DNA of 64,000 nucleotides from NCBI GenBank assembly GCA_040878395.1, contig JBBDMI010000006.1, positions 67,145 through 131,144 on the forward strand, written 5' to 3'; not shown here. The text below continues a report on this DNA, generated by a model with database tools. This DNA is from Candidatus Babelota bacterium. Its GTDB lineage: Bacteria; Babelota; Babeliae; Babelales; Vermiphilaceae.

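Follow-up and report, generated by a model that had tools for sequence, protein, structure and literature searches.

Left-hand end of the locus and closest relative

Two adjacent nucleoside-diphosphate kinase genes were located just beyond the locus, on the contig overlapping the left side of the window (L080):

L080 969-1373 and 1472-2005 (window about -15,965..-14,929, left of the window edge), nucleoside-diphosphate kinases

The second kinase of the pair (178 aa) begins with a signal peptide-like N-terminus (MQTIKAILLSFTLAASTTQAQS); if exported, such an enzyme could regenerate NTPs outside the cytoplasm. The pair is also present (134 and 174 aa) in the closest relative, L081, whose Wzx is 82% identical. 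L081 differs from the window in carrying a Fic-domain gene (18045-18881), which is inserted between the genes for the 245-aa GT2 and the TPR-GT and is absent from the window.

Domain fusions and viral homologues

In relatives, the FUT-like family f19492 carries a fused N-terminal class I methyltransferase (L026 14170-15873, L029 15949-17631 and L034 14780-16534), and the island family f10489 is joined to a SAM methyltransferase of the type encoded at window position 9799 (L039 14865-16052). These fusions suggest that glycosylation and methylation steps are coupled. The same families (GT32, GT114-like putative xylosyltransferases, the probable GT-A-like family f25861, GT2, f10489 and FkbM) were found clustered on giant-virus-like contigs, namely L135 (IMGVR_UViG_3300037067_004891, a contig of 421,673 bp with a GC content of 0.25) and, within L089-L168, some 50 further IMG/VR loci of low GC content. 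N-terminal hydrophobic segments were absent from all members of these families in the viral clusters. Many viral GT32 ORFs were approximately 550 aa long, which suggests fusion to an additional domain.

Composition and gene integrity

GC skew was uniformly and strongly negative across the whole window, ranging from -0.10 to -0.25. The minus strand carries 45 of the island's 52 genes. Neither RNA families (Rfam) nor tRNA genes (ARAGORN) were detected in the 64 kb. One FkbM methyltransferase paralogue, 8018-8512 (-), looks decayed; its alignments to 7269-7934 and to the orthologue in the related locus L015 continue across its stop codon and are interrupted internally by a gap of some 19 aa.

Ankyrin-repeat proteins and right-hand flank

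Ankyrin-repeat and right-flank genes
42756-44804, ankyrin-repeat protein interrupting the island
54662-55411 and 55755-56066 (-), ankyrin-repeat proteins at the flank of the island
56844-57779 (+), compact ATP-dependent DNA ligase, 311 aa (DNA_ligase_A_M, 132 bits, and DNA_ligase_A_C)
about 57947-58424 (-), ParE-family toxin gene, 94 aa, with a small 68-aa ORF upstream (gene table of contig L001)
61565-62590, Legionella_OMP family porin
62617-64000 (-), continuing past the right edge (L001 1-1966), GH81 family protein, 1186 aa

A signal peptide of the type found on the glycan enzymes was predicted for two of the three ankyrin proteins; the gene at 55755-56066 is fragment-like and lacks one. 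The GH81 protein, whose gene adjoins that of the porin, is a putative endo-beta-1,3-glucanase and could target host beta-glucans. The neighbours of the DNA ligase gene are ankyrin and orphan genes. The ParE-family gene and the 68-aa ORF probably form a toxin-antitoxin pair, besides which the region from 57.8 to 59.4 kb contains few genes.
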